NCBI GenBank assembly: GCA_001803225.1
Contig: MHBF01000149.1
Coordinates: forward strand, 1-28,965
DNA: 28,965 bases
Direction of reading: 5' to 3'
Origin: Lentisphaerae bacterium GWF2_44_16
Lineage (GTDB): Bacteria > Verrucomicrobiota > Lentisphaeria > Victivallales > GWF2-45-14
Positions 5,263 through 28,965 of this stretch are shown here, in pieces (positions within the stretch are counted from its first letter, which is position 1; the number at the start of each line of letters is the position of its first letter). The notes under the pieces are model-generated. The model did no database searches. It worked only from the letters and a program-made list of their open reading frames with translations, and was not told the origin of the DNA. The position numbers were made by a program, and so were the translations under genes.

Positions 5263-5687
5263 AATAAATGATTCCCTTCTATTTGGCGTACTATATACAT
5301 CACTCTGCAAGCAAAAATTATCAAGTCCTATTTCGATAACGATTGCTTTGTGAAAATGATGTTTCTTCACGATTTTGAGATAGTATACCAAATGGAAATA
5401 TGCATTCCTAGACGCCAGCGGCACAATCGTTCATAGATTGAACGAAATCGATTTACCGATAATACACGTGAACGGTGACGCCAAGTAGTGGTCATATATG
5501 CTTCAAGTAGCATTCAATACGCCGTCAATAGGTTGTCAACTGCACGCACCAAAAATTTGAGAAAATCGTTCTCAAACCAACACCTGTTTGCAGAAAATTA
5601 AACCATTTTTCTCAACCTGATTTTACTGGGTTAAAAGATGGATAATTGTACACATAAAATCGTATAAAATTCAAAAAACTCAAAAAT

Positions 5688-5792
5688 AGTTATTGTAGAC
5701 AATAATTGGGTTAATGACAACACAAACGAGGATATTGACGACAATAACCGAGTTATTGCATACATTAATCGAGTTAATGTCGACAGAAGTAC
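5688..5792. repeat. Five tandem 21-bp iteron-like direct repeats (consensus rGTTAwTGnmgACAATAAncG), each containing a short palindrome.
   Basis: Units start at 5688, 5709, 5730, 5751 and 5772, giving an exact 21-bp phase. GTTAWTG and ACA are conserved in all five units. The array sits in a 1-kb non-coding gap between the recombinase and hsdR. Confidence 0.6.
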
Positions 5793-6332
5793 ACAAAAAG
5801 AAAAAGAAAAGGAAATTGATGTATTAGATTAACAAGATAAAGGGTAAAATCCAGTCGGTTTTACCGGTAAACAATTACAGTTTTTAAAGACGATTTTTGA
5901 AAGAATAATTCCCGAAACCATCAAACATGTGAGTATATGCATTTTTGTGAATACCCACAGTTGAGTAAATGGAATTTGGTGTGAGCGTAAATTTGCACTA
6001 ACCCTTGGATAACTTAAATTGCAATCGCGCGATAGGATTTTCCTTTTTCCGAAGGCTCCCCCGGTCACGGAGAATAACATACTATGGGTACCGCATAAGG
6101 GGACGGTTAAATTATGGGAGGCAAAAATTTTGAAAATCTGTAAAATGATTCTCGTGAACATTCATTAACCATATAAGCCAAAAGCACAATATTCAATATT
6201 GACTATCAATTCAATGACAATTTTGATAAAATGGTGATTATGATAGATTTTTTCTATTGTCTTCAATTTTGTTGTGGAAATTAAAGGGAAAAACGAATCT
6301 TGGATATTGAAAGGGGTATTATCTTGAGTAGA

Positions 6333-8666
6333 ATGACTGAAGAAGATGTCAAAAACCGTCTCATTACTCCAGCAATCGATGGTGCCGGGTGGCAAAAAGA
6401 ACAAGTGTATATGGAATACTTTTTTACCAACGGCCAAATGATTGTTCGCGGAGATACTGTCAAACGAGGAAAACAGAAAAAAGCTGACTATGTTCTTGTT
6501 CGACAAGAAGGCAATATTCCACTTGCGATAATCGAAGCAAAAGACAACGAGCATTCACTTGGTGCCGGAATGCAACAAGCGATTGACTATGCAACGATCC
6601 TAAATATACCATTTGCCTATTCATCTAATGGCGATGGATTCTTGGAACACGATTTTTTAACCGGCGCAGAAAAAGAAATATCCCTTTCCGATTTTCCGTC
6701 TGAACAACAATTGTGGGACAGATATAAGACTGCAAAGGGAATTGATAAACAACAAGAAAATATCATATCAGAACCCGAACACTTTGATTTGTTTTCTAAA
6801 AAGCGTCCTCGATATTATCAACGAATTGCAATCAATAAAACGATGGAAGCCATCGCCAAAGGTCAAAAACGAATTCTCTTGGTCATGGCGACAGGAACCG
6901 GCAAAACATTTACCGCTTTCCAAATTTGTTATAAACTTTTGAAAACCAAAACCGCAAAACGGATTTTGTATTTGGTGGATCGGAACATTTTGATTGATCA
7001 GACCATGCAACAGGATTTCCGCCCATTTGAAAAAGTAATGACGAAGATTCAAGATAAAATCTTGGATAGCTCGTACGAAATTTATATGAGTCTCTATCAT
7101 CAACTCGCCGGGGACGAAGGATGCGAACCGTTCCGTGAGTTCAAACCGGAATTCTTTGACTTAATCATCGTTGATGAAGCACATCGTGGCAGCGCGAAGG
7201 AAGAATCAAAGTGGCGGAAGATACTTGACTACTTTAAGGATGCCATTCATATCGGTATGACGGCCACTCCGAAAGAGACAAAGGAAATCAGTAACATCAC
7301 CTACTTTGGAGACCCTGTTTACACATATAGCTTGAAACAAGGCATCGACGATGGCTTCCTTGCTCCCTATAAAGTGATTCGCATAGGGCTGAACAAAGAC
7401 CTTGAAGGTTGGCGTCCCCCGATGGGCAAGTTGGATGTGGATGGCAATCCCGTTGAGGACAGAGAATATAACGCGAAGGATTTCGATCGCTCTTTAGTGA
7501 TTGACGAACGCACCAAAGCTGTTGCTAATCGAATCACGAAATGGCTTCATGCCAATGATCGTTTCTCAAAAACAATTGTTTTCTGCGTTGATATTGAACA
7601 CGCTGAAAGAATGAGACAAGCTCTTATCAACGAAAACAAAGACCTTGTTGCTCAAAATCCAAAGTACATCATGCGCATCACAGGAGATAACCCCGAGGGC
7701 AAAGCCCAATTGGATTACTACATCGATCCAAACGAAAAGTATCCGACCATCGTTACAACATCAAAGCTTATGACCACGGGAGTGGATTGTAAGACCACCA
7801 AGTTGATTGTTCTCGATAGCAATATCAATTCCATGACTGAGTTCAAACAGATCATTGGACGAGGAACGAGATTGTATCCAGAATTTGGAAAGAACTATTT
7901 CACCATCATGGATTTCAGAGATGTATGCCGCCTATTTGCGGATCCGGCGTTCGATGGAGATCCGGTTGTGATTATTGAGGGTGGCGACGGCGGAGAAAAC
8001 TGGAATCCAAATCCTCCCGTTATTGGTGGCGATGGTGATGAACCTAATGGTGGAGAACCCGTGCCGCCGATTGGACCAACTCCCCCCAAACCACCATTCA
8101 GAAAAGTGCGTGTTCGAGGTGTTGACGTGACCATCTTGAATGAAAGAGTTCAATACTATGACAAAGACGGGAAGCTCATCACAGAAAGCATTCGTGATTA
8201 CTCCAAACGAAATATCCTGAATGACTATGCCACCATGGATGATTTTATCCTTATGTGGACCAAATCGGAGAAAAAGCAAGCCATCATTGAGGAACTTCAG
8301 GAACATGGCGTGCTTTTGGATTCGCTTCGGCAGGAATCAGGAAAAGTCATCGATGATTTTGACCTAATCCTTCATGTGGCTTTTGATAAGAAGCCGTTAA
8401 CGAAGAAAGAGCGAATCGATAACGTGTTGAAGAAAGGATATCTAGCAAAGTATTCGCCTGTTTGCCAACAGGTGCTTTCAGCTTTGCTCGATAAATATAT
8501 GGATGGCGGTATTTCTGAATTGGAAGACACCAGGATTTTGGATAACGCTCCATTCGATCGGTTTGGAAGTCCGAGAAAAATCGCATCGCAATTTGGTGGG
8601 AAAAATGAGTATGTTTTTGCAGTAAGAGAACTTCAAAACCAGATATATCAGACATCTGTCAACTAG
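6333..8666 (+). CDS. hsdR: Type I restriction enzyme R subunit (HsdR).
   Basis: N-terminal PD-(D/E)xK nuclease region (IEAKD) with the typical HsdR start MTEEDVKNRLITPAIDGAGW. Helicase motif I MATGTGKT and motif II IIVDEAH. Q-motif-like RYYQRIAI. HsdR-type C-terminal region. The start could alternatively be TTG at 6300 or 6324. An unusual Pro/Gly-rich low-complexity insert lies at about 7960-8100. Confidence 0.85.
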   Translation: MTEEDVKNRLITPAIDGAGWQKEQVYMEYFFTNGQMIVRGDTVKRGKQKKADYVLVRQEGNIPLAIIEAKDNEHSLGAGMQQAIDYATILNIPFAYSSNGDGFLEHDFLTGAEKEISLSDFPSEQQLWDRYKTAKGIDKQQENIISEPEHFDLFSKKRPRYYQRIAINKTMEAIAKGQKRILLVMATGTGKTFTAFQICYKLLKTKTAKRILYLVDRNILIDQTMQQDFRPFEKVMTKIQDKILDSSYEIYMSLYHQLAGDEGCEPFREFKPEFFDLIIVDEAHRGSAKEESKWRKILDYFKDAIHIGMTATPKETKEISNITYFGDPVYTYSLKQGIDDGFLAPYKVIRIGLNKDLEGWRPPMGKLDVDGNPVEDREYNAKDFDRSLVIDERTKAVANRITKWLHANDRFSKTIVFCVDIEHAERMRQALINENKDLVAQNPKYIMRITGDNPEGKAQLDYYIDPNEKYPTIVTTSKLMTTGVDCKTTKLIVLDSNINSMTEFKQIIGRGTRLYPEFGKNYFTIMDFRDVCRLFADPAFDGDPVVIIEGGDGGENWNPNPPVIGGDGDEPNGGEPVPPIGPTPPKPPFRKVRVRGVDVTILNERVQYYDKDGKLITESIRDYSKRNILNDYATMDDFILMWTKSEKKQAIIEELQEHGVLLDSLRQESGKVIDDFDLILHVAFDKKPLTKKERIDNVLKKGYLAKYSPVCQQVLSALLDKYMDGGISELEDTRILDNAPFDRFGSPRKIASQFGGKNEYVFAVRELQNQIYQTSVN

Positions 8667-8678
8667 GGAGGACATAAC

Positions 8679-10154
8679 ATGAGTATTAACGGATTTGTGA
8701 AATCAATACAAAACATTATGAGAGGAGATAGCGGTATCAATGGCGATGCGCAACGCATCGAACAAATGACCTCGCTTCTCTTTTTGAAAGTCTATGATGT
8801 CAAAGAAGGGGATTGGGAGTTTCATGATGAAAACTATGTATCCATCATTCCAGAAAAACTGAGATGGCGGAATTGGGCAAAGGACAAAAAAGACGGAAAA
8901 GCAATGACGGGGCAAACACTGCTTGATTTCGTCAATAATGAGCTGTTTCCGTCGATTAAGGAACTCAAGATTACCGAGAGCACACCCATTAAGAAAGCCA
9001 TTGTCAAGGCCGTTTTTGAGGATAGCAACCAATACATGAAAGATGGAGTTCTCTTACGGAAAGTTGTTAACGAGATCGATTCAATCGAATTTGACGAGTA
9101 TAACGAAAAACACGCATTTGGTGAAATCTACGAAACCATTCTCAAGAGCCTTCAGAACGCAGGAAATGCAGGCGAATTCTATACTCCGCGTGCGGTAACT
9201 GATTTCATGGTCAAAATGATTGAACCGAAACTTGGCGAGAGAATCGCTGATTTTGCCTGTGGAACCGGCGGATTTTTGACATCATCGCTTAAGGTTCTTG
9301 AAGAACAAAAAAAGACGGTAACCGACATCGATTTATATAATCAAAGTGTCTTCGGAATTGAAAAAAAGCCACTTCCCTATTTGCTTGCAATAACAAACAT
9401 GCTTCTCCATGATATTGATAGTCCCCAAATATTCCACGGCAATTCTCTTGAACGAAATGTTCGGGAATATCAAGAAAACGAAAAGTTCGACGTTATTCTG
9501 ATGAATCCTCCTTATGGTGGAACAGAAAGCGAAAGCGTCAAAATGAATTTTCCAACCGATCTTCGCAGTAGCGAGACGGCCGACCTCTTTATGTCTCTTA
9601 TAATGTATCGTCTAAGGAAAAACGGAAGAGCTGCTGTCATTATTCCTGATGGGTTTCTATTTGGAACGGACAACGCAAAGTCAGCAATTAAAAAGAAATT
9701 GCTTGAAGAATTCAATTTGCACACAGTCGTTCGAATGCCTTCAAGCGTCTTTTCGCCCTATACACCCATCACAACAAATATCCTCTTTTTCGATAATTCA
9801 AAGAAGACCGATCAGGTATGGTTTTATCGTGTAGATATGCCAAAAGGATATAAGCACTTCTCAAAAACAAAACCCATGAAGGTTGATCATTTTGATGAAT
9901 GTGTTAGTTGGTGGAATAATCGAGAACAAAAAAAAGACAGTGTATCCGACGCACTCAAGGCTCAAGTATATAGCGTTTCAGAAATAATTGACAGAAGCTA
10001 TGATATCGATCTTTGTGGATATCCAACCATAGGAGAGGAAATTTTTTCGCCGGAAGAGACAATTCGACTTTTTCACGAAAAAAGAGATTCGCTAAATACG
10101 AAAATTGACAAAAGATTAGCAGAGATTGAAACTCTTTTGGGGCTGAAAAAGTGA
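8679..10154 (+). CDS. hsdM: Type I restriction-modification N6-adenine DNA methyltransferase (HsdM).
   Basis: Strong RBS AGGGAGG precedes the ATG. AdoMet-binding motif FACGTGGFL and catalytic NPPYGG. HsdM N-terminal domain. Its stop overlaps the hsdS GTG start. Confidence 0.92.
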   Translation: MSINGFVKSIQNIMRGDSGINGDAQRIEQMTSLLFLKVYDVKEGDWEFHDENYVSIIPEKLRWRNWAKDKKDGKAMTGQTLLDFVNNELFPSIKELKITESTPIKKAIVKAVFEDSNQYMKDGVLLRKVVNEIDSIEFDEYNEKHAFGEIYETILKSLQNAGNAGEFYTPRAVTDFMVKMIEPKLGERIADFACGTGGFLTSSLKVLEEQKKTVTDIDLYNQSVFGIEKKPLPYLLAITNMLLHDIDSPQIFHGNSLERNVREYQENEKFDVILMNPPYGGTESESVKMNFPTDLRSSETADLFMSLIMYRLRKNGRAAVIIPDGFLFGTDNAKSAIKKKLLEEFNLHTVVRMPSSVFSPYTPITTNILFFDNSKKTDQVWFYRVDMPKGYKHFSKTKPMKVDHFDECVSWWNNREQKKDSVSDALKAQVYSVSEIIDRSYDIDLCGYPTIGEEIFSPEETIRLFHEKRDSLNTKIDKRLAEIETLLGLKK

Positions 10155-11629
10155 TAGCGTCATCATTGAAAAAATCAGCAATTCAAGCCGCGATTAAGGG
10201 AAAAACGACTCATCAACTTTCAACTGATGGAAATGCAAATGAATTGTTGACCAAAGTGAAAAATGAAATAATGCTTTTGGCGATGAGAAAGGATATAAAA
10301 AAGCCGAAAATAATGCCTCCAATTTCGGAAGAAGAGATTCCTTTTGAAATTCCAAACAATTGGCTTTGGGTCCGTTTGGGTGAAGTATCTTTCAATCATG
10401 GACAAGTCACCCCTTTTTGCGAATTTACTTATATTGATATTTCGTCAATTGATAATTTGAATAATCGCCTTGGAAATATGACTACGATGAAACCGGAAAA
10501 TGCTCCATCACGAGCGCGAAAAATTGTGGTTGGAGGCGATGTAATTTACTCAACCGTAAGACCATATTTGCACAATATTTGTGTAATTGATAATAATATT
10601 AACCCGAGTCCAATTGCAAGCACGGGATTTTCTGTGATTTGTACGCCCTTTGAAATATTGAATATATACCTATTCTATGTTTTTTTATCGCCGATGTTTG
10701 ATAATTATGCGAATGACTTAGAAAATTCTAAGGGGGTAGCATACCCGGCGATAAATGATGATAAGTTTCAAAAAAGCTTAATTCCGCTTCCTCCACTTGC
10801 TGAACAATACCGAATCGTCCAACAATTAAAAGAGTTGTTGCCCAATCTAGAAAAACTTGAAAAGGACGAGATAAAGCTTGATGAATTGCAACAGCAATTC
10901 TCGATACAGATTAAGCAATCAATACTTCATCACGCAATCCAAGGAAAACTTACAATTCAATCTCTTGAGGACGGGAACGCAAAATTACTTGTCGATAAAA
11001 TACGAACTACTAGGAAAAAAAAGATTAATGAAGAAAAAGACCAAAATAAAACTTTGTTTTCGGCGATTTCGGAGGATGAAATTCCGTTTGAAATCCCTGA
11101 TAATTGGTGCTGGATTCGACTAGGTGAGATAGTGAAGATTATAGGAGGAACCTCTTACAATAAATCCCAAGAATCATCCCATGGAATTAGAGTTATTCGA
11201 GGGGGCAATATTATTCAGGGGGAATCTGAATTAGCAATTAAGGATGATGATATTTTTGTTGACCAAGTACTATTTGATTTTCAAAAACAAATTCAACTGA
11301 ATGATATTATTGTTGTTTCTTCTACCGGAAGCAAACAAGTAATAGGAAAAGCAGCAATTGTGAAAGAAGAGGTTGAAAATTGCCAAATCGGAGCATTTCT
11401 AAGGATTATTCGATCATACTCTCCGGAGGTTGTACCGTATATCTCATTGATATTCCAGTCAAATTATTATAGGGAGAGAATTCGTGATTTAATTTCCGGA
11501 ACAAATATTTTTAATATAAAGAATGATTTTTTTTCTTCAATGCCAATTCCACTCCCCCCTCTAGCCGAGCAAATCAGAATCGTTGAAAAGAATAGTGCCA
11601 TTCAATTTGTAATTCAGCAAATAAGCTAG
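10151..11629 (+). CDS. hsdS: Type I restriction-modification specificity subunit (HsdS) with two target-recognition domains.
   Basis: GTG start overlaps the hsdM stop (GTGA). Two TRDs, each followed by a conserved helical repeat (IPLPPLAEQYRIV... and PIPLPPLAEQIRIV...). EIPFEIPxNWxWxRLGE is duplicated at the start of each TRD. Confidence 0.85.
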   Translation: MIASSLKKSAIQAAIKGKTTHQLSTDGNANELLTKVKNEIMLLAMRKDIKKPKIMPPISEEEIPFEIPNNWLWVRLGEVSFNHGQVTPFCEFTYIDISSIDNLNNRLGNMTTMKPENAPSRARKIVVGGDVIYSTVRPYLHNICVIDNNINPSPIASTGFSVICTPFEILNIYLFYVFLSPMFDNYANDLENSKGVAYPAINDDKFQKSLIPLPPLAEQYRIVQQLKELLPNLEKLEKDEIKLDELQQQFSIQIKQSILHHAIQGKLTIQSLEDGNAKLLVDKIRTTRKKKINEEKDQNKTLFSAISEDEIPFEIPDNWCWIRLGEIVKIIGGTSYNKSQESSHGIRVIRGGNIIQGESELAIKDDDIFVDQVLFDFQKQIQLNDIIVVSSTGSKQVIGKAAIVKEEVENCQIGAFLRIIRSYSPEVVPYISLIFQSNYYRERIRDLISGTNIFNIKNDFFSSMPIPLPPLAEQIRIVEKNSAIQFVIQQIS

Positions 11630-12576: not shown

Positions 12577-14306
12577 TTGAGGTCAAAGGATTGTCGGTCA
12601 AAGCAAGGCTTAACGAATTGCTTCCTCCATATTTAGTTAAAAATGGCTCATACGAGAATTCGCCTAAAATAAACGGATTCCTGAAATCAAAAGTCGGCCT
12701 AGATACGATAATTTGTCAAGTGGTCGGGGAAATAAGTGAAGAGAAAAACGGAATAGTTGAAGGACATGTACTTGAACTTCAAGTTAAGGGATACATATCT
12801 GGAAAATCATTCATTCAAGGGTTAAGAATGCTACCTATCGTCTCTGCTTCTGTACAACTGCTTGATGATGTTGATATGTTGTCTATTTATAACGACAAAG
12901 CCGAGAAAACCATTGATATTGGTAACGATTTATTCGATATAAACAAACCAATCAAAGTCAATATTGATAACTTGATACCGTCCCATATAGGAGTATTCGG
13001 TAACACGGGATCAGGAAAGTCGAACACTCTGACAAGAATACTTCGAGAATATGAAAGTATTATATGTCAATCCAAAACCAATAGAGGAAAATTCATTGTT
13101 TTTGACATAAATAATGAGTATACAAAAAACGCGATTTGTGATGAAAGCAAAAAAACAATTTATCGATTAAAGACCCGCTCAAACAGCGGAGACAAAGTCC
13201 CGTTAAACATCACCTCTTTGACGGAAGACAACTTTGTTGTGCTTATGAATGCCTCTGAAAAAACTCAAGTTCCTGCAATTAAAAATGCGTATAAATGGGC
13301 TTTTGCGAGCGACGAAGATCGACGAGAAAAATCGTATTACCTTAATCAAGTCAAATCTATGCTGACCAATGCTAAAAAGTCTTTGTTTAATTCCATGAGG
13401 CACTATCTGAAAGACTATTTTTCAAACATTGATCATTTTAAGTATCACACATTACAAAATAATTTCTTTTTTGATGATGGACACTCGCGAATATACATAG
13501 AAAACTCTCTTTTTAATGTGATGCTTAATTCAATTGATCTTGATTTGCCAATCGAGCCACTTGACAGATTCATATTTGAATTGTATTTTGCAGTCGCTCA
13601 AGAAAACGAAAACGGAGTTCAACTGGACTTCATGATGCCACTCATTTCAAGGGCAAACAAACTTCTTTCTGACTTTAAGAAGGTATTTGATTTTTCCATA
13701 AGATCTGACGACAAGAACATTATTTTCAATAAGAAGAATATTTGCGTTATTCAATTAGGCGATGTAAACAAAGATATGAAAGAGATTATTCCGTCCCTTA
13801 TTTCGAGCACTATCTTCGATTCTTTATCTCAAAAGAAAGATGATAAAGGAGAGATTGTCCAAATAATAAGTATTGTGGTTGATGAAGCTCATAACATACT
13901 GTACGATGAACCCGGGCAGACAGCTTCACATACAAAAGTACTTGAAGTATTTGAAAAAATTGTTAAAGAAGGTCGAAAATTTGGGTGCTTTTTAATGCTT
14001 GCAAGTCAAAGACCAAGCGACATTTCTCAAACCATAATTTCCCAACTTCATAATTACTTTATTCACAAGTTGGTTAACCCCTCTGATATTCAAAAAATTC
14101 GTAAAGCGGTTGCTTACCTTGATGAAAATTCTATGGATTTTCTGACGGTACTTGCACCTGGTGAGTGTATTGTCTCTGGAACGGCATTTCAAATGCCAAC
14201 ATTTCTTTATGTAACTCAAGTCAACTTGGAAAACAGACCTAACAGCGAAAATGTGAAACTCTTTGGAAATAATGGACTATTTATCAGAGACAATGTTGAC
14301 GAATAG
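12552..14306 (+). CDS. herA: HerA-like helicase/ATPase, partner of the SIR2 protein.
   Basis: N-terminal HAS-barrel-like MGKTVGRIIEVKG. Walker A GVFGNTGSGKSNT and Walker B IVVDEAHN. Size about 584 aa. Translationally coupled to the upstream SIR2 gene. Confidence 0.8.
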   Translation: MGKTVGRIIEVKGLSVKARLNELLPPYLVKNGSYENSPKINGFLKSKVGLDTIICQVVGEISEEKNGIVEGHVLELQVKGYISGKSFIQGLRMLPIVSASVQLLDDVDMLSIYNDKAEKTIDIGNDLFDINKPIKVNIDNLIPSHIGVFGNTGSGKSNTLTRILREYESIICQSKTNRGKFIVFDINNEYTKNAICDESKKTIYRLKTRSNSGDKVPLNITSLTEDNFVVLMNASEKTQVPAIKNAYKWAFASDEDRREKSYYLNQVKSMLTNAKKSLFNSMRHYLKDYFSNIDHFKYHTLQNNFFFDDGHSRIYIENSLFNVMLNSIDLDLPIEPLDRFIFELYFAVAQENENGVQLDFMMPLISRANKLLSDFKKVFDFSIRSDDKNIIFNKKNICVIQLGDVNKDMKEIIPSLISSTIFDSLSQKKDDKGEIVQIISIVVDEAHNILYDEPGQTASHTKVLEVFEKIVKEGRKFGCFLMLASQRPSDISQTIISQLHNYFIHKLVNPSDIQKIRKAVAYLDENSMDFLTVLAPGECIVSGTAFQMPTFLYVTQVNLENRPNSENVKLFGNNGLFIRDNVDE

Positions 14307-14397
14307 TAAGTCTGTCTTGCTATGTTTTTTTCACGGTATTCACAAGTCAAAAAACCATATGCCCTTCTTGTCGCATCGAAAACTGCAGTTATAGAAT

Positions 14398-14458
14398 TAT
14401 GTTATTTTGTGACGTTTTTCAACTCGATAATAGCAATATGTCTCTTTGACTTCAACGA
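14398..14458 (+). promoter_or_regulatory. Copy (a) of a roughly 60-bp repeated promoter-like module (ATGTTATTtTgTGACg...AATAGCAAT...CTTTGACTTCAACG).
   Basis: Aligns over its full length with the copies at 16113, 19042 and 19122. Carries a -35-like TTGACA/GTGACG and a -10-like TAGCAAT about 17 nt downstream. The first mobile-element copy begins 73 bp downstream, and the next same-strand gene is the 174-aa ORF at 15379. Confidence 0.4.
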
Positions 14459-14530
14459 TGAGGAGAACCATCGTTTTTCATGTTTCTTCATGACAGACGA
14501 CGCCACATAATGTGGATATATCTTTCTGAT

Positions 14531-15079
14531 TGCATATACCGACCGACTTGAGCCACCGAACCGACGAGGGTTGAGCCACGAGACCGATGGCGTGAGCCAC
14601 AAATTCCATCACATATTCAACGTATTGCATTTTGTGCACAAAGTGCTCGTTGTAATCCTTAGGGAATGTGGCGAACGGATTTGTAGGTTTCTGGTTTTTT
14701 CTATGAGACTGTACTATTTGTATTGAAGATTTTTCTTTATCGATTTGTCTCTATGTTCCAGTCTTTTTGTAGTAAGCTATGCAGAACTGCGTATTATCCA
14801 CGTTTTTGACTTTTTCAACCCTTCGTTTCTGGCACGTCCAACAAAAATTGATACCTTTGTCTTGCGTCCAACGAAGTACATATATCGACGTATTACAGAG
14901 ACTGGTGTGGCAGTTAAGCGTACCCATCATAGTCGACATAAACGTATATATAGGGTAGATGCGAATCAAAAAAATACCCTCCAAAGGGTGGCTCCCACTT
15001 GTCGGATTGATGGCTCATTTTCATCGGAAGGGTGGCTCACTCTCGTCGGTCGGTGGCTCAAAGTGCGTCGGAATATCCA
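14531..15079 (+). mobile_element. 549-bp non-autonomous (MITE-like) transposable element, copy 1, with Tn7/Mu-like ends.
   Basis: Perfect 5-bp direct repeat CTGAT at 14526-14530 and 15080-15084. Termini are 5'-TG...CA-3' with imperfect inverted repeats of about 27 bp (TGCATATACCGACCGACTTGAGCCACC vs TGGATATTCCGACGCACTTTGAGCCACC). Subterminal GTGGCTCA/TGAGCCAC motifs recur with 22-bp period, 3 at the left end and 4 at the right. About 90% identical to the inverted copy at 28277-28836. No intact transposase ORF. Confidence 0.7.
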
Positions 15080-15378
15080 CTGATATTTCTGACAAGTTTC
15101 CAGCTTCTTAATAAGTTGACTAGATGGGTTGCGTTATTCAAAGGCTGTCAGGCATATATCTATAGTATATTTGACGGCTTCCTCAAAGACGATGGCCCTT
15201 CATTCGGGTTTCCATCTTCACTTTGGGGGATGTTGTGTTTCTGGGACTTATGCAGAAAAAAACGATTAGTCAAAATCGCCTCAAGCATCCTTAAAACTAG
15301 AAAATGCACCAAAATCAATAATATGGAAACATAACAATTTCAGTGTTTTTATGATGGCAAGGAGGGCTTTTAGTCTAT

Positions 15379-15903
15379 ATGACATCGGAATCAATACGAG
15401 AGAAGTTGGAGTCCCTAACGAAAGAGGAATTGATTGATCTTTTCACAAATCTTATTCATCAAAACGATACAGTAGAAGCGTTTTTGATGAATCGTCTTTT
15501 TGGTGCGAAGGACAACTATGTAGTGGTTCATAAAAAGATTGAAAAGATGATGTCGAATCAATTTGGCGAATATCAGAAAGCCTTCAAGCTGTTCGATACG
15601 TATATCAAGTCCTCATCAAATTCCACGCATTCGTTGGAGTTGTCATGCGACTTCATGGAGTGGTTGATGGAAGAGGCGGATACGTACTCAGAAACATTTC
15701 CGGACACGTTAATTAAAATCATCACGTACGTTTATGAGATCGGAGTTGTTTTAGCTGCTCAGGTTAAAAATGATAATCAAACAAGACGTTTACATACTAT
15801 CTTGGGAGTGAATCGCTTTGATGAAGATATTAAAGAAACATTAAGCGGAATCTATTATGATTACCTGAATGATCCTGACGACGTTTCCCCGGCGGAGCGA
15901 TGA
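15379..15903 (+). CDS. Hypothetical protein, 174 aa.
   Basis: AAGGAGGG lies upstream of the ATG. The ORF is uninterrupted. No recognisable motif. Promoter module (a) lies upstream at 14398-14458, with the mobile-element copy 1 inserted between the module and the gene. Confidence 0.55.
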   Translation: MTSESIREKLESLTKEELIDLFTNLIHQNDTVEAFLMNRLFGAKDNYVVVHKKIEKMMSNQFGEYQKAFKLFDTYIKSSSNSTHSLELSCDFMEWLMEEADTYSETFPDTLIKIITYVYEIGVVLAAQVKNDNQTRRLHTILGVNRFDEDIKETLSGIYYDYLNDPDDVSPAER

Positions 15904-16112
15904 TGTGTAAGCCTTATATAGGAGGTTTGTATTGTCGAATCGATATTAAGAAAGTGTGTTATTGAGTCGGGGTCATAGCCGGCTCCTGCGTTATTGCCAT
16001 TGAATCGAAGCAATGTAGATCCAAAATACTTATGCTCTTTCTTTACATTTTCCCATTGCTCTCAAACATTTGACCTCTCTGACTTCATCACTATGTATAG
16101 AAATAGAATCAG

Positions 16113-16170
16113 GTTATTTTTCGACATTTTCCAACCCCCAAAAATAGCAATTAACGTCACTGATTTCAAT
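16113..16170 (+). promoter_or_regulatory. Copy (d) of the repeated promoter-like module, upstream of the 139-aa/CHAT operon.
   Basis: GTTATTTTTCGACATTTTCC...AAAATAGCAATTAACGTCACTGATTTCAAT aligns with modules a, b and c. A partial extra copy (TGACCTCTCTGACTTCATCAC) lies at about 16070-16093. Confidence 0.4.
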
Positions 16171-16347
16171 TTAATACTGATATATTCTCTAGCGATATTG
16201 TCACACCTGATTTTCATTAAAGGTTACACCTAAGAAAGAAGAGCTATTATGGCAATTGTAGTATATCTAAAGTCCATTTGACGGCTCCAACTTCTATGAT
16301 GGTACTTTGTTTATTTACATAATATGCAACATATTAGGAGCGCAGTT

Positions 16348-16764
16348 ATGTTGACATGGTTAGGAATAAATATTAAAGGATTAACAATTAGAAATACGGC
16401 GATTGAATACCATAGATTCATTTTACCTTTCTATGAAGAGTGGATGAAAGAAATGTATTCTAAAGGGATTCAGAGCCAGTTGAAAAGCGAGAAAGATTAT
16501 GTCATATCAAAAATCAATGATGACTGGTTTGCAATCTATAACAGTGAAAAAAACGGCTATTTATTAATAGACAATCGAACACGCGAAATATCTTTCACAA
16601 GAAAGCCAAGACTTTTTATTGATACAAGAATTCCAATCAGTGATGTTCCGGAAGCAATAGCCGGTTTTGGGTATGCTATGGAAAAAACAGGGCATAAAGA
16701 TGAAATTCTAGAATGTAGTATCAAAGATGCCATTGAGTACTTAGAAGCAAATAATGAAGAATAA
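16348..16764 (+). CDS. Hypothetical protein, 139 aa, first gene of a two-gene operon with the CHAT protein.
   Basis: TAGGAG RBS sits 7 nt before ATG 16348. The track's 16324 start is less likely. Its stop overlaps the next gene's ATG by 11 nt. No recognisable motif. Confidence 0.55.
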   Translation: MLTWLGINIKGLTIRNTAIEYHRFILPFYEEWMKEMYSKGIQSQLKSEKDYVISKINDDWFAIYNSEKNGYLLIDNRTREISFTRKPRLFIDTRIPISDVPEAIAGFGYAMEKTGHKDEILECSIKDAIEYLEANNEE

Positions 16765-18847
16765 TATTGAACTTTCAACAAACGCGTCTTTTACTTATAT
16801 TATAATTTATTACTCTGATGACAAATTTGAAGATATCAAGCCGATTGTTTATGGTTCTCGAGAAGAATTCATTAAACAGCAAGTAACATATCACTTGTTC
16901 TCCGATGAACTATTTGGTTTTGTAGAGGTGTTTTCAAAAATCATACAGTTACCTAGGGGTCTTTTCGATCTATATAGAGTTTCGCTTCAAACACTAACAG
17001 ATGTAAAAAATCATTCACACAATATCATACACATTCCACAGTATCTTGTCGATGAGATTATTAGCAAAGCGTCTTTAGGGGTGAATGGTTTATATAATCC
17101 CACACTACTGATATATGATGAAAGGTGTTTGAATGAAGTATTAAGGTTTGAAGAAGTCATATCAACATCGTTAGGTAAAATGAGATTCGTGGAGTTTAAT
17201 GATTTAGTGCCTAAAGATATTTGGAAAAGACTTCAAGACCTACATAGTTTTGAACGTATGGAAAAACTACAAATACCGAATTTAGCTGAATTCCTTACAA
17301 ATGATGAACTGAATGTTTTGCCTTCTTTCTTTTACTTAATTCAAAATGACGATTTTGATAGATATGTGAGACGAGATAAAGATGCAGAAAGCGCATTCAG
17401 TTTCAATAATAGAATACTAGATGAATATAATATAAGAATGATGGCACTGAAATCAACAATTGAGAACAGAAGTGATGATAAAGAAAAGAATGACAATCAT
17501 TATAAAGAACAAGTAAAGTATCTACGACAGTACAATCATAAGCCTTTAGTAATTACATTGCCGGGAATCCCCAATCATCAAAAAAGGTGTTTTAGGAATA
17601 TAGATGTAAAAGAAAACAACATTACAGAGCGATATGCAATCAAAAATATTGGTCTTTATAGGGCAATGGCACGCAGCGCAGCTTATCTTGAATTAAATTA
17701 CATGGGACAAGAGCTGTATAACATTGTCTATAAGTTGGAGAAACATTGTATGGGTAATATTAGTAATAAGTTTGTCTGGAGGTCTCTTAAGCGGTTTGGA
17801 GATATTATCGCAAAGAAGTTAAGCGATCAAGAGTTGAAACTGCTTACGTATTCAAATCAAATCACGTATTACTCAGATTTACCATTGGGTATAGCAATAT
17901 TACCCGGCGCCACGTCACCACTTATCTGCTACACATCTTTATCAGCAAACAATTTAACCCCACTTTCAAGACTATATCAAACAGAATTACCAAAACAAGA
18001 GGGGTTTTTCATATCGGGCAAGTTGAAGGTAATAATTGCTGAGTGTATTAGCAAAGATGATAAAATACGAGAGTTATCAGATGCTGGTTGGAACGGGATT
18101 AGAGACAATTTTAGAAATAATGAGAACATAGATATTTTTATAGAAGAAACTAATACAGTCTATAAATTAAAAAAGTTTTTAAGGTCAAATACAGATGCGA
18201 ATGTGTTAATTATCTCGGCGCACGGACATTATGACCTTGTGAGAAAAATATCTGGGATTATTGTGGGTAACGAATTTTGGAATGCCAATGAAAATGATTT
18301 TAGAGTACCAAAAGTCGTAATCTTAAGTTCTTGCCATGTAAGTCCAAGAGGGGTTGGAGCAATTAATATTTCAGATTTATTTATCCGAACAGGAGCACAA
18401 AGTGTAATAGGTACACTGATACCGATTAATACATATAAAAACGCAATTTTCATGCAAAGATTATTGGTTTATATGATTGAGTCGTTTTCTATTGATAAAC
18501 CAAAATCACTTGATGAAATTTGGATGCATGTCGTTTCTAGCAATGCGATTTTAGAAATTGTTCATTCTTCAAAAAAATTAGTAAAATGGGCGTTTTCAAG
18601 AAATAGTGACTCTGTATCTCCAATCGAAAAGTTTATGTTGGGTGAGAGTAAAATTGATTTACGAGCAAAACACATATACCAAGATAGCGTGAATAGACTA
18701 ATTGACATTGCCAAAGGTGACGGTATGGATCATTATGTGAAAGCAGTAATAGATTCACAAGGATTTTTTCCTGAATCAATATTTTATATATTGTATGGAA
18801 AACCCGAGTTGATTTTATTTGGAAAAGGTATCAACAAGTTAGCTTAA
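16754..18847 (+). CDS. 697-aa protein with a C-terminal CHAT (caspase-like His/Cys protease) domain and an uncharacterised roughly 450-aa N-terminal region.
   Basis: Conserved CHAT dyad context: VLIISAHGHYD (His) and KVVILSSCHVS (Cys), about 45 aa apart. Translationally coupled to the upstream small gene. AT-rich and island-like. Confidence 0.75.
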   Translation: MKNNIELSTNASFTYIIIYYSDDKFEDIKPIVYGSREEFIKQQVTYHLFSDELFGFVEVFSKIIQLPRGLFDLYRVSLQTLTDVKNHSHNIIHIPQYLVDEIISKASLGVNGLYNPTLLIYDERCLNEVLRFEEVISTSLGKMRFVEFNDLVPKDIWKRLQDLHSFERMEKLQIPNLAEFLTNDELNVLPSFFYLIQNDDFDRYVRRDKDAESAFSFNNRILDEYNIRMMALKSTIENRSDDKEKNDNHYKEQVKYLRQYNHKPLVITLPGIPNHQKRCFRNIDVKENNITERYAIKNIGLYRAMARSAAYLELNYMGQELYNIVYKLEKHCMGNISNKFVWRSLKRFGDIIAKKLSDQELKLLTYSNQITYYSDLPLGIAILPGATSPLICYTSLSANNLTPLSRLYQTELPKQEGFFISGKLKVIIAECISKDDKIRELSDAGWNGIRDNFRNNENIDIFIEETNTVYKLKKFLRSNTDANVLIISAHGHYDLVRKISGIIVGNEFWNANENDFRVPKVVILSSCHVSPRGVGAINISDLFIRTGAQSVIGTLIPINTYKNAIFMQRLLVYMIESFSIDKPKSLDEIWMHVVSSNAILEIVHSSKKLVKWAFSRNSDSVSPIEKFMLGESKIDLRAKHIYQDSVNRLIDIAKGDGMDHYVKAVIDSQGFFPESIFYILYGKPELILFGKGINKLA

Positions 18848-19041
18848 AATAAAGTTGTACACCATATAGTTTGTCCGTGTAAAAAATGGCGATAGAACAG
18901 TTTCGTCATTGAATTCAGGGGAGATCATGGTATTCAAAGCGCTTAACGAAACGAACTTCAATGGAGTTTCCCTAAGCGCTAGGTTCGACGACTTCCATCG
19001 AAGTATCGAAATGCAGCATTATTGCTTTTTGATATAGCAAC

Positions 19042-19103
19042 ATGTTATTATTTGACAATTTTACGTCCTCGAAATATCAATAGACATCTTTGACTTCATC
19101 GAC
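19042..19103 (+). promoter_or_regulatory. Copy (b) of the repeated promoter-like module.
   Basis: ATGTTATTATTTGACAATTTTACGTCCTCGAAATATCAATAGACATCTTTGACTTCATCGAC. TTGACA, a 17-nt spacer, then TATCAAT. Confidence 0.4.
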
Positions 19104-19121
19104 ACCCGTAGACATAGTAAT

Positions 19122-19180
19122 ATGTTATTATTTGACATTTTCCGACACGGAAATAGCAATAAGCGTCACTGACTTCAACC
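19122..19180 (+). promoter_or_regulatory. Copy (c) of the repeated promoter-like module, in tandem with copy (b), upstream of the 257-aa gene.
   Basis: ATGTTATTATTTGACATTTTCCGACACGGAAATAGCAATAAGCGTCACTGACTTCAACC. A further partial copy (CATAGCAATTAAGCGTT) lies at about 19285-19305. Confidence 0.4.
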
Positions 19181-19357
19181 CTGTACAGAAACATTCGACA
19201 AATAAAACCGAAATCGAAATCAACACTCGCTGACGATGAGGTGTTTTTGATTTCTTCTATATGCAGCAATAACAACAATTGTATAATTGTGATAATCCGG
19301 CATAGCAATTAAGCGTTCTATTATTTTGTGGAATTTGAAATATAGAGGTGATTGTGA

Positions 19358-20131
19358 ATGGAAATGAATGTTAAGGCATTTATCAAATATGAATCAAAGA
19401 GATTATTCGAAGATCGAGTGCTAGAACCCATTAAAATCGAACCCCTAAGAACATATCAACGACACTCGGCTCCCGATGTGTTTGGGATAGCCTTCAACAT
19501 TGCCTTCGATTACGAGTTATTTAAAAGGGGACTAATAAGCAATTATGCACCTCATCAAGACTATATCGCTCCCCTATATGATGAAGAAATTGCTGCATTT
19601 GATAAAGTGGAAAAGAAACAGGAATTGAACGCGCGGGATCTGCTTATACTGGTTAATCATGAAAACCTAAGCAGATTCGAGAATAACATGGCGATGTATA
19701 TGCAATTATCTTCTCATAAGTTCTCGCCCGCCGACGAAGAGAACATGAGGCTTGATCTTACGTTGATGTCCAGTTGTATTCACGAATTCTTCTCAAGCGT
19801 CTCTAAAACAGACAAGTTTATTCAGAACCCCGATTTTTTTTCAAAGCGTGTAGATATTTATGGTGACGGCGACTTCATCATGAACGACATCTTGTTCGAA
19901 ATCAAATGCGTGTCGAGCGATAACATTGAAACAAAGACTCAAAAACAGTTGATTTTATATAAACTGATAAATGATATCGATGAAGACAAAAGAAAGTACA
20001 CAATTAACAAATTTGGGTATTACAATCCACTTAAGGGGCAAATACATACATGGGATGCCATCATTCCGGAAAGTGTAATGAATCATTGGAGAGAATACGT
20101 GAGTTTGACTAAGAAAACAACCAGTCGATGA
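19358..20131 (+). CDS. Hypothetical protein, 257 aa, with a possible PD-(D/E)xK-like motif.
   Basis: AGAGGTG RBS sits 7 nt before the ATG. The D...EIK motif (VDIYGDGDFIMNDILFEIKC) is reminiscent of restriction-endonuclease-fold nucleases. This is a weak, unverified inference. Confidence 0.55.
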   Translation: MEMNVKAFIKYESKRLFEDRVLEPIKIEPLRTYQRHSAPDVFGIAFNIAFDYELFKRGLISNYAPHQDYIAPLYDEEIAAFDKVEKKQELNARDLLILVNHENLSRFENNMAMYMQLSSHKFSPADEENMRLDLTLMSSCIHEFFSSVSKTDKFIQNPDFFSKRVDIYGDGDFIMNDILFEIKCVSSDNIETKTQKQLILYKLINDIDEDKRKYTINKFGYYNPLKGQIHTWDAIIPESVMNHWREYVSLTKKTTSR

Positions 20132-20290
20132 CCGCGAAAGTGTCAGAGATACTTAATGTCAGATTCCGAGAGTATTATTGAGCGTTCCCGTTCATTATGA
20201 TGCACAAAGCCGCCTTCAAAGTGATTAGAGTAACACACTACGGAGGAAGGACGACACCGCCTCGCTAATGAATTGATGTGATTATTTCCG

Positions 20291-21442
20291 ATGAATCTCA
20301 ATGCTAGTGCAGTTAACGGTTTATTGGGGGATAGAAAGGTCGCGTCGCTTATGGAATACAAAGGAATAACAGATTCAACGAACGATCACGGCGGCGTCAT
20401 AGTGCTGGCTCTTGGGAAAACCTTGAACAGTACGCAGATGGCAACGATTAGCAATCGTTTTCAAGTCTACCGGGACTTCCAAGTTTTTCGCACCGACAGG
20501 ATTCCAAATATATCCGCCGGATACCACCGCATCGTGGGCGAAATGATTCAAGTGGATTGCGAACTGGGCGGAAATGGACTAGGATATCAAGACGGCTCCT
20601 CATTCACCTACATCAACAACAACGGCTCATGGGCGGGCGGCGTCAAATTACCCGCAGAAATCTTCAATGAGTATAAGTTACACGGCTATGATGCGTCATT
20701 CGGCACTGTGGAATATGACGGTCATCACATCAACTGCCAAGAGTTTTTCGACGGAGATACGGCGGGACTCCCCGATTTGACGCATGATCCCGATAACTTG
20801 ATTCTCCTCAAAAGACCGCACGTGGAAGACAACAACGTCAATCAACTTCCGCTCGCCGATAATATCGATCGAATTGAACGTAGTTATCGGACTGGGATTT
20901 CCAACCAATTCTTTTTGGGATTGCTGATAACGTCGCTTTTAGGCTTTCTCTTTGGATTCATCATCGAAGTCGCAACTGGGCTGATATCGAACCGAAGAAA
21001 ACATAGTTTGGTGTCGGTTGCCAATCAACTCAAAGCCCTTCTCAAACCCGGTGTGAAGATGGGTGTTTCCACCATGCTGCTCGGGCTTGGCTTGAATCTG
21101 GTAATGCAGTTGGTTTTTCTATTTCTGTTCGGCGTTCTACACTTCAACTCAGGAGAGGTCGGAATCCATTTCATCTCTTTGTTGGTTTATGTGGTGCTAT
21201 CCTTTGGGGTTTACACACTTGGAACCCTCAAGAAGAAGCATACGCTAGAATCCTTTTTCGTGGGGTATTTGCCAATTCTATCCACAATTGGCTTGATGTC
21301 GGCTGTTGGGATCATCTCGCTGTTCGTGACCGGACTATGGAAAATTCTCGGATGGATGATATCGCTTGGGATCATCATGGTCTTGCGTTTGGGGAATGTC
21401 AATCAAACCGGTTCGAACGATGTCGGCGTAAGTGTCAACTAG
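20291..21442 (+). CDS. Hypothetical membrane protein, 383 aa: roughly 200-aa soluble N-terminal domain plus 4-5 C-terminal transmembrane helices.
   Basis: Long hydrophobic stretches occur after about aa 200 (FFLGLLITSLLGFLFGFII, VSTMLLGLGLNLVMQLVFLFLFGVL, FISLLVYVVLSFGVYTLG, LPILSTIGLMSAVGIISLFVTGLW). GC content is intermediate. The start is uncertain, with an alternative M at 20351. Confidence 0.5.
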   Translation: MNLNASAVNGLLGDRKVASLMEYKGITDSTNDHGGVIVLALGKTLNSTQMATISNRFQVYRDFQVFRTDRIPNISAGYHRIVGEMIQVDCELGGNGLGYQDGSSFTYINNNGSWAGGVKLPAEIFNEYKLHGYDASFGTVEYDGHHINCQEFFDGDTAGLPDLTHDPDNLILLKRPHVEDNNVNQLPLADNIDRIERSYRTGISNQFFLGLLITSLLGFLFGFIIEVATGLISNRRKHSLVSVANQLKALLKPGVKMGVSTMLLGLGLNLVMQLVFLFLFGVLHFNSGEVGIHFISLLVYVVLSFGVYTLGTLKKKHTLESFFVGYLPILSTIGLMSAVGIISLFVTGLWKILGWMISLGIIMVLRLGNVNQTGSNDVGVSVN

Positions 21443-28130: not shown

Positions 28131-28231
28131 CTGTGGTCGTGAATGTGACTGTGAGGCGTTGCATCGCTAAAGGAGAATACCTTTTCGATCGAGTTGGACA
28201 TTGCATGAAACAGCCTTTGGCAATCACGCCA

Positions 28232-28276
28232 ATATACGCAAACGCATATATATCAAAACGAAACACAGAACAAATA
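28232..28276. repeat. 45-bp direct repeat (left copy) abutting the second mobile-element copy.
   Basis: ATATACGCAAACGCATATATATCAAAACGAAACACAGAACAAATA is identical to 28840-28884. A third partial copy (ATATACGCAAACGCATAT) lies at about 28882-28899. Confidence 0.6.
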
Positions 28277-28836
28277 TGGATATTCCGACGCACTTTGAGC
28301 CATCGGACCGACGAGAGTGAGCCACCCTTCCGATGAAAATGAGCCATCAATCCGACAAGTGTGAGCCACCCTTTGGAGGGTATTTATTTGATTCGCATCT
28401 ACCCTCTATTTGCGATTTTGTCGACTATGGTGGGCACGCTTAACTGCCACACAGGTCTTTGTAATACGTCGATAAACTTACTTCGTTGGACGCAAGACAT
28501 AGTGATCAATTCATCGCGATCTTTGTTGGCCGTGCCAGAAACGAAAGGTTGAAAAGGCCAAAAATGTGGATAATACGCAGTTCTGCATAGCTTTCTCCAA
28601 AAAGACTGGAACAAAGAAACAAATCGATAAAGAAAAATCTTCAATCCAAATAGTACAGTCTCATAGAAAAAACCAGAAACCTACAAATCCGTTCGCCACA
28701 TTCCCTAAGGATTACAACGAGCACTTTGTGCACAAAATGCAATACGTTGAATATGTGATGGAATTGGTGGCTCACGCCATCGGTCTCGTGGCTCAACCCT
28801 CGTCGGTCCGGTGGCTCAAATCGGTCGGTATATGCA
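28277..28836 (-). mobile_element. Second, inverted and diverged copy (about 90% identity by eye) of the 549-bp Tn7/Mu-like non-autonomous element.
   Basis: The reverse complement aligns end-to-end with 14531-15079, including the TG...CA termini and the 22-bp-phased GTGGCTCA subterminal repeats (4 and 3). Flanking 5-mers are AAATA and CAAAT, an imperfect target duplication. Internal indels disrupt the small ORF seen in copy 1. Confidence 0.7.
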
Positions 28837-28839
28837 CAA

Positions 28840-28884
28840 ATATACGCAAACGCATATATATCAAAACGAAACACAGAACAAATA
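28840..28884. repeat. 45-bp direct repeat (right copy) flanking the second mobile-element copy.
   Basis: Identical to 28232-28276. Separated from the element end by CAA. Confidence 0.6.
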
Positions 28885-28965
28885 TACGCAAACGCATATT
28901 CTAATAATTGAATATACGGTACTGTCAAGAATGTTGTGTAAATGGATTGACATAAAGAATTGGAA

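Follow-up and report, generated by a model that had tools for sequence, protein, structure and literature searches.

Several described systems resemble, each in part, the repeated element analyzed here. Bacteriophage exclusion (BREX) possesses a dedicated regulator, BrxR. Arrays of repeated non-coding units are represented by BIME-2 of E. coli, which consists of alternating Y and Z2 REP units, by the NIME/dRS3 arrays of Neisseria and by the pneumococcal BOX element (boxA-boxB(n)-boxC). Members of these families are present in tens to hundreds of copies per genome and are built from palindromic, hairpin-forming units, and NIMEs flank exchangeable gene cassettes. The sopC site of plasmid F is composed of twelve 43-bp direct repeats bound by SopB, while the modular-evolution model of lambdoid phages knows boundary or "linker" sequences at module borders, which were described for phages and are not tandem. 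The operon of the cyclic-oligonucleotide-based antiphage signaling system (CBASS) likewise has a dedicated regulator, the WYL-domain factor CapW (PMC9122588). In type III toxin-antitoxin systems, the near-identical ToxI repeats of about 34-36 nt are structured and always paired with an RNase of the ToxN family (PMC4147584). Here, we analyzed contig MHBF01000149.1 of Lentisphaerae bacterium GWF2_44_16 (GCA_001803225.1; 28,965 nt, subsequently designated the window), in which an oriented repeat with a period of about 80 bp stands upstream of three gene units. The repeat is probably a shared control or junction sequence and not a textbook promoter. Literature searches returned no description of such an element.

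An earlier note on this DNA had described a promoter-like module of about 60 bp in four full copies. A profile built from these copies recovered each of them on the + strand with nhmmer, i.e. at positions 14381-14460, 16093-16171, 19024-19104 and 19104-19183 (E values of 5e-21, 4e-19, 9e-20 and 6e-24, respectively), and in addition detected a weak fifth copy at 16032-16091. The latter corresponds to a partial copy suspected at about 16070, which turned out to be a degenerate unit directly upstream of a full one. The modules were also evident on reading positions 14200-19500 and in the output of a repeat finder (families D1, D3, D5 and D11). The conserved downstream block was confirmed as well: AATAKCAATNNNNNTCWYTGAYTTCA yielded four matches versus 0.05 expected in shuffled sequences, and about five-fold excesses were obtained for ATAGCAAT (6 occurrences versus 1.05 expected) and TGACTTCA (5 versus 1.2). 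Thus, a conserved and oriented element is present as proposed, ahead of separate gene groups that resemble transcription units in a defence island, but the module is not solitary. At all three sites, and not just upstream of the 257-aa gene where two full copies had been noticed, it belongs to an array of units joined head to tail and repeated every 79-81 bp, a period that is not a multiple of three. The second partial copy, placed at about 19285, shrank to the 15 nt ATAGCAATTAAGCGT, which are detected by no profile, sit 42 nt before the start codon of the 257-aa gene and directly follow the promoter-like sequence ATAACA-16-TG-GATAAT at 19269-19296 found in a consensus scan.

Each unit consists of two halves of ~40 bp, alpha and beta, both of which open with ATAGnAAT, followed ~9-10 nt later by (T)TGAC. 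The alpha half reads ATAGnAAT-ATGTTATTATTTGACATTTTCC..., and the beta half reads ATAGCAAT-AGGCGTCAC (or ACATCTT)-TGACTTCATCGAC... The ATAGnAAT boxes are spaced 39-41 bp apart and GAC precedes ATAGCAAT by 16-18 nt, the sequence in between being variable; mutual likeness of the two halves is modest (z 1.6-3.4 versus shuffles). Arrays contain between 1 and 3.5 units. In the window, the first and the second array each consist of a decayed and then a full unit, and the third of two full units (Table 1). In the first and second window arrays (w14, w16), in L007 and in L026b, two arrays from elsewhere that are described below, the degenerate unit is located 5' and the gene-proximal unit is intact. 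The decayed unit of the first array begins within the region of the HerA stop codon and has a tail, CATCGAAAACTGCAGTT, that shares homology with the linker between units in L007 (CATCGAAATCTGCAGAT). Neither the unit profile nor the profile of the gamma element introduced below detected the possible decayed third unit at 19192-19262. Tandem Repeats Finder called none of the 80-bp arrays, as unit identity is below its threshold. Two unit profiles were used, the initial one made from four copies and a later, enlarged one.

Flanking context of 8-20 kb was considered around each match in other genomes. An exact-pattern scan of 185,579 species genomes, using a pattern that covers about 60% of the known full units and leaving the other contigs of the source metagenome-assembled genome outside, returned 11 stretches, ten of which match the 26-nt pattern only, while one (L007) is a true array. 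L007 comprises three full units and a decayed one and lies on OW818673.1, a complete 2.0-Mb chromosome with about 33% GC, between a TmtA-like gene (4e-84) and PbeA (1e-198); it is the sole array locus reported on this chromosome. A metagenome scan yielded one contig, L017, the larger context of which is L026. In L026, one array is located between genes for an 8xMP membrane protein and a radical-SAM/SPASM protein; a second site, consisting of a decayed unit and gamma, is flanked by genes for an S8 peptidase and a 400-aa protein, and TIR and AAA genes belong to the neighborhood. L034 and L035 were reached via a 75%-identical homologue of the 174-aa protein encoded downstream of the first window array. 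In L035, genes for DUF7662/HI_0787_N and a short-chain dehydrogenase (adh_short) flank one array, the 5' part of which has 84% identity with the L007 array over 116 nt; another array comes after AbiEii, and gamma precedes both 173-aa genes of this locus. Finally, one diverged unit was found upstream of a 61%-identical BovA homologue in L032, with the strings GATATAGCA and TATTATTTTGAC at correct spacing (nhmmer E 0.73, match judged by eye).

Altogether, nine arrays were either detected by profile or linked to gamma; the window and L035 contribute three each, L026 two and L007 one. All nine are intergenic and co-directional with the flanking genes, and they end 110-365 nt before the first gene of the respective unit. 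The upper value applies after removal of a miniature inverted-repeat transposable element (MITE)-like insertion, which separates the copy that the earlier note had placed at 14398 from the 174-aa gene. No array is found inside the conserved gene pairs SIR2-HerA, 146 aa-BovA and 257 aa-383 aa. Across the genomes, the downstream genes are unrelated, encoding the 174-aa protein, the 146-aa protein with a BovA-like protein, a PD-(D/E)xK-like protein, PbeA, a radical-SAM protein and adh_short. Within a family of low-GC defence islands, independent units of defence genes are marked on their upstream side by the arrays.

Units are 82-91% identical between genomes versus 64-74% within the window. The unit at 14383-14466 is 82-85% identical to L007 unit 2 and the unit at 19105-19191 is 88-91% identical to L007 unit 3, despite neighboring genes that share nothing. 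In the core alignment (8 units, 3 genomes), 36 of 72 columns are invariant. The first array is followed by gamma, a non-coding element that leads into the upstream region of the 174-aa gene. For the window copy, identity amounts to 91-92% with L035:171-247 and L035:3770-3845 and to 86-87% with L026:4989-5060. Gamma is hence more conserved in the three genomes (86-92%) than the adjoining coding sequence for the 174-aa protein (80%). Two small open frames, MRRTI[IV]F[HN]VS[LS] and MFLxDRRRH..., are intact in 4/4 gamma copies; their reading as coding was made by eye.

Our tentative preference is that the array represents a DNA-level cis-regulatory platform for protein binding. It would act in cis as a multi-site platform for a sequence-specific DNA-binding protein, which could be a repressor, a silencer or an activator encoded elsewhere. 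Because the boxes recur about every four helical turns, the ATAGnAAT...TGAC sites would be exposed on one face of the DNA, which would permit cooperative binding. The bound protein would determine transcription into the downstream unit, and the units behind the arrays would form a small regulon. We infer binding of the array by a protein, and control of transcription by it, from the position of the arrays, their constant orientation, preferential preservation of the gene-proximal unit, the fixed geometry, conservation without homology of the flanks and the lack of an RNA signal. A shared trans-acting factor, as already postulated, is still the most economical reading, although no such regulator was identified.

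In its mode of action, this platform would come closest to a shared operator, an upstream regulatory array or a phased-repeat platform of the sopC type, whereas its layout is reminiscent of BIME-2, NIME and BOX. As with the operators of CapW and BrxR, a conserved cis element is located just upstream of otherwise unrelated anti-phage operons, implying common control. However, those operators are single, usually palindromic and located beside the regulator gene, while here 1-3.5 direct 80-bp repeats are present without dyad and without adjacent regulator. The array shares with sopC and iteron arrays direct repeats of ~40 bp that carry a short recognition box and are helix-phased (39-41 bp, then (T)TGAC), but no ParA, ParB or Rep domains occur among the window proteins and three arrays are present within 5 kb, each before a gene unit. 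Two alternating sub-unit types, variable copy number and intergenic location are features in common with BIME-2, NIME and BOX, from which the present element differs by being rare, by its direct repeats and by the absence of a predicted hairpin.

Several observations weigh against regulation through the array. First, a candidate regulator is missing, as window, L007 and L026 share nothing but a generic HTH_3 domain. The 174-aa protein, which co-occurs with arrays in two islands, was considered as array binder and rejected: its model is an all-helical repeat without helix-turn-helix (HTH). This protein is also absent from the available flanks of L007 and L026. Second, homologues of the downstream genes occur without array, as seen for 42-50%-identical 257-aa homologues (in the prophage L018 and the Wadjet-adjacent L024), a 36%-identical BovA homologue (L033) and 29%-identical homologues of the 174-aa protein. 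The genes therefore do not need the array. Contigs carrying an 86%-identical 257-aa homologue end 110 nt before the gene and are thus uninformative in this respect. Third, L029 and L031, relatives of the island backbone with 86-88% nucleotide identity, lack arrays. Fourth, the invariant columns do not cluster significantly into boxes (16 runs versus 18.5 expected), and promoter-like matches between arrays and genes are near background (35 versus 25 expected).

Alternatively, the array could work as RNA, i.e. as ToxI-like repeated antitoxin, small RNA, leader or attenuator. Like ToxI, it consists of tandem direct repeats immediately upstream of abortive-infection or defence genes, a weak hairpin with a T run behind it is present in gamma (14454-14475), and the two small open frames mentioned above are conserved in all four gamma copies. 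However, consensus RNA folding of 8 units detected neither structure nor covarying pairs on either strand (consensus fold of -1.4 kcal/mol on the + strand and no pairs at all on the - strand), the folding energies of six leaders were no better than those of shuffles, and folding of gamma gave no convincing RNA structure. Nothing relevant was retrieved from Rfam with the window, region 14250-19400 or L035, neither at gathering thresholds nor at E up to 1, and ARAGORN detected no tRNA. Moreover, units of 79-81 nt with 64-91% identity and no predicted structure are unlike the ToxI repeats of 34-36 nt, and the mutually unrelated downstream proteins include no endoRNase of the ToxN/AbiQ, CptN or TenpN type. 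From CRISPR the array is distinguished by units that abut head to tail without spacers. Function as RNA is therefore highly improbable.

If the model of the earlier note holds literally, each unit is itself a promoter comprising TTGACA as -35 element, TAGCAAT as -10 element and a downstream operator, which would be read by the housekeeping or by one dedicated sigma factor. TTGACA is indeed perfect in 4/10 units (w19_1, w19_2, L007_1, L007_3), an AT-rich, UP-like stretch is located upstream of it, the second block follows at a constant distance of 16-17 nt and the orientation fits the downstream genes. The remaining units carry GTGACG, GTGACA, TCGACA, TTGAAA or ATTACA instead, and thus GAC is kept while TTG varies, which is the opposite of what sigma-70 constrains. 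At 16-18 nt after TTGACA only TAGCAA, AGCAAT, TATCAA or ATCAAT are found; none of the 10 units from 4 genomes offers a hexamer with both A2 and T6, and AATAGCAAT is unsuited as a -10 element. Conservation of ATAGCAAT extends to all 8 of its positions and thereby exceeds the needs of a -10 element. On the + strand, the module went uncalled as promoter in the consensus scan; calls were obtained for the minus strand of two units (TTGAAG-17-TGcTATTAT), where matches are as good or better, and for the beta-to-alpha junction in the third array. In addition, tandem units would fire into one another. That the unit is a promoter in the literal sense is accordingly improbable. Promoter-like sites are present between arrays and genes at 16223-16250 and 19269-19296. 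In one of the two gamma-173-aa cassettes of L035 (copy 1), the beta slot holds two strong consensus promoters just before gamma (TTTACT-16-TGcTATAAT and ATGACA-18-TATAGT). Therefore, transcription of the unit plausibly starts around this position. A stand-alone sigma-70 promoter is disfavoured, while a role in transcription control is plausible. Known motifs were compared with the units and rejected on inspection, namely the Spo0A box, CodY, CtsR, sigma-54, sigma-H and the Bacteroidetes -7 element, as well as dif/Xer sites, lambda Int arm sites, T7-type promoters, Ter sites and a tRNA 3' fragment.

The distribution of the element also bears on the question whether the array is a neutral or selfish, minisatellite-like repeat of AT-rich island DNA without function for its neighbors. 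Three patterns representing the beta block, the alpha block and gamma gave 0 matches in viral contigs, and blastn of the array found no match in plasmids and phages. A search of 5.8 billion proteins with an alignment of array-derived pseudo-peptides, i.e. arrays mis-called as open reading frames, retrieved nothing. Because the element is absent from viral contigs, plasmids, phages, Rfam, distant homologues and backbone relatives, it is rare and no genome-wide repeat, the finding that would have spoken against a regulatory module. It is tied to no gene family, nor to the island backbone. The proposed association with particular genes is likewise not upheld, as the module precedes unrelated genes elsewhere and homologues of the same genes lack it. 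A copy number of 1 to 3.5 units, decay of units at array ends, homologous genes without arrays and the unclustered invariant columns would all be expected for a minisatellite. However, unit identity is higher between genomes than within the window and gamma is better conserved than the coding sequence next to it, all arrays keep the same orientation, and only one true locus was found in the species genomes and one locus in the complete 2.0-Mb chromosome. Furthermore, the arrays are not surrounded by terminal inverted repeats or target duplications. We therefore hold a neutral or selfish origin to be decidedly unlikely.

The main rival explanation is that arrays and gamma are junction ("linker") sequences between defence-gene cassettes, which provide homology or the site of an unknown recombinase for insertion, duplication and swapping of cassettes, with any effect on transcription being secondary. 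Orthologous unit types are common to genomes that lack other homology. Units 2 and 3 are adjacent in L007, while their closest relatives in the window (14383-14466 and 19105-19191) are separated by 4.7 kb that include two gene units. A 1.2-kb duplication in L035 (172-1351 versus 3770-4940) starts within 1-2 nt of the beta/gamma junction, and so do the homologies between window and L035 and between L026 and L035. Gamma precedes two different genes, i.e. the 174-aa family and the 400-aa gene of L026. Several non-coding blocks (alpha-beta, gamma, delta and element X) recur in the islands and give them a mosaic structure, and after hsdS the cargo of the backbone relatives L029 and L031 is quite different. 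On the other hand, no recombinase is consistently near: the window contains only a large serine recombinase (3541-5424) at a distance of 9 kb, whose own flanks have no similarity to the array. The arrays lack dyad symmetry and hairpins of the attC/att type, none of the cassettes flanked by arrays was seen again at another place or in another order, L029 and L031 have no arrays at the point where cargo was swapped, and empty tandem units are unlike products of site-specific insertion. Since decayed alpha-beta sequence is present upstream of gamma, the shared left boundary may just mark a drop in conservation. Taken together, we regard a junction function as possible, if rather unlikely; it does not exclude regulation, as the two readings are not mutually exclusive.

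If arrays, gamma and the other shared blocks were the junctions of an undescribed cassette-exchange mechanism, this mechanism would build defence islands in these uncultivated bacteria, a proposal which we consider unlikely. The mechanism would have an integron-like outcome, i.e. single-function cassettes in one orientation with the same module before each, yet operate with direct-repeat arrays and neither attC hairpins nor IntI; this is to be judged just as unlikely. Integron cassette arrays similarly contain a repeated non-coding element between single-function, mostly co-oriented cassettes, and defence genes are known integron cargo. However, attC sites are imperfectly palindromic, close the cassette on its 3' side and work with the tyrosine recombinase IntI, attI and Pc, whereas the present element is not palindromic, is located 5' and often occurs in empty tandem copies. 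No IntI-type recombinase is encoded in the window, and no recombinase was seen in the flanks of L007, L026 and L035. With lambdoid linkers the element shares that short conserved non-coding stretches lie at module borders and are common to genomes differing in their modules, but here chromosomal defence islands and tandem repeats are concerned.

L029 and L031 share with window positions 3815-10230 the backbone of serine recombinase, hsdR and hsdM and diverge inside hsdS. Their cargo consists of an AAA_13 protein and others in one case and a 613-aa reverse transcriptase in the other, and the position after hsdS looks like a cargo hotspot. Five GTTAWTG-N2-4-GACA-like repeats are located at 5689-5790, in the 400-bp gap upstream of the serine recombinase gene, and may represent the regulatory or attachment region of the recombinase. 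Other non-coding blocks are repeated as well. A second upstream motif (TATATCTAwAGT...TTGACGGCT...) is shared by 15155-15200 and 16262-16307 (72% over 46 nt), 40-220 nt before the 174-aa and 146-aa genes, and also precedes both L035 173-aa genes (about 330-360 and 3925-3955). Element X, which is non-coding, 75-79% identical among L035:1197-1351, 4715-5016 and 6756-7053 and without Rfam match, comes after each of the 173-aa genes and after AbiEii.

The MITE-like insertion, which lies outside the module and separates the first array and gamma from the 174-aa gene, has TG..CA ends, three TGAGCCAC repeats spaced by 22 bp at each end and a 5-bp target duplication (CTGAT). The orthologous leader L035:172-543 is uninterrupted and lacks it. 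A second, inverted copy with 91-96% identity is located at 28277-28836. The ~550-bp element is non-autonomous, with an end layout that is Tn7/Mu-like for transposase sites, and its two copies bracket 13.2 kb including two arrays and all downstream units. Perfect 47-nt direct repeats (28231-28277 and 28839-28885) flank the second copy, as compared to the 5-bp duplication of the first, and a third, partial copy of their first 22 nt is found at 28878-28899. Possible reasons for the 47-nt repeats are the structure of the target, a long staggered cut and an effect of assembly close to the end of the contig.

In the window, genes for a metallophosphatase/AAA protein, the large serine recombinase, type I hsdRMS and SIR2-HerA are followed by the three arrays with their units. 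GC content is 33-40% up to about 20.4 kb and 45-60% thereafter; the low-GC defence island may end at this step (about 20300-20500), which is straddled by the 257-aa/383-aa pair. The 174-aa protein has no match in Pfam, PADLOC and NCBIfam and 13 homologues among 1.84 billion representatives. Its AlphaFold2 model (predicted local distance difference test, pLDDT, of 85) is the all-alpha helical repeat mentioned above and has no significant match in the PDB (best E 0.056). In the second unit, the 697-aa protein matches CHAT in Pfam (2.4e-5) and BovA of Borvo in PADLOC (5.3e-28). The 257-aa protein of the third unit is PD-(D/E)xK nuclease-like and matches RTasPDDEXK (9e-11) and PDC-S61 (3e-8) in PADLOC, and the 383-aa protein is hydrophobic in its C-terminal half. 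The three units had been suspected to form a multi-component system. Judged from gene content, they are independent modules and not one machine, because each pair or gene occurs on its own elsewhere: the 146-aa/697-aa pair is kept in L032 as proteins of 140 aa and 691 aa (61% identity), the 257-aa/383-aa pair at 86% in L022 (255 aa and 363 aa) and L023, and the 174-aa family is present twice alone in L035. The 42%-identical homologue of the 257-aa protein (L018:10001-10777) is encoded between large terminase and portal genes of the prophage, and the 50%-identical one adjoins JetABC (L024). The identical contig has been deposited under two phyla, as Lentisphaerae bacterium GWF2_44_16 and as Candidatus Uhrbacteria (GCA_003485135.1), so that its host assignment is unreliable.

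Table 1. Positions of array units, associated elements and downstream gene units in the window.
Feature	Position	Strand	Detection or remark
Decayed 5' unit, first array	14303..14382	+	By eye; repeat D1 starts at 14374; no profile match alone
Full alpha-beta unit, first array	14383..14466	+	nhmmer E 5e-21; 4e-19 with enlarged profile
Gamma element, 71-76 nt, non-coding	14453..14528	+	Gamma profile E 5e-24
MITE-like insertion, 549 bp	14531..15079	.	Between first array with gamma and 174-aa gene
174-aa gene	15379..15903	+	Downstream of first array
Degenerate 5' unit, second array	16025..16100	+	nhmmer E 0.02; 6e-6 with enlarged profile
Full alpha-beta unit, second array	16095..16177	+	nhmmer E 4e-19; 9e-15 with enlarged profile
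146-aa gene and gene for 697-aa CHAT protein, Borvo-like pair	16324..18847	+	Downstream of second array
First full unit, third array	19028..19112	+	nhmmer E 9e-20; 6e-18 with enlarged profile
Second full unit, third array	19105..19191	+	nhmmer E 6e-24
Possible decayed third unit and deleted gamma remnant (GACGATGAGGTGTTTTTGATTTCTTC)	19192..19262	+	By eye versus 14447-14492
Isolated beta-box start ATAGCAATTAAGCGT, 15 nt	19302..19316	+	Exact ATAGCAAT match; no profile detects it
257-aa PD-(D/E)xK-like gene and gene for 383-aa membrane protein	19358..21442	+	Downstream of third array

In summary, four islands contain at least nine different gene units with a conserved 80-bp array immediately upstream; most of these units are defence-related, and their genes are otherwise unrelated. 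This bears on the assembly of defence islands and on the restraint of the often toxic genes in them, and the array provides a compact handle on both questions. The profiles of unit and gamma can be used as probes, by which the gene directly downstream becomes a candidate for a new defence gene; the 174-aa family, the 400-aa gene and a 131-aa gene are examples of such candidates. The element may mark cassette junctions in defence islands, and if it is indeed a recombination junction, it would show how cassettes are swapped. If a single protein binds the array, the units would define a defence regulon in lineages that have never been cultured.

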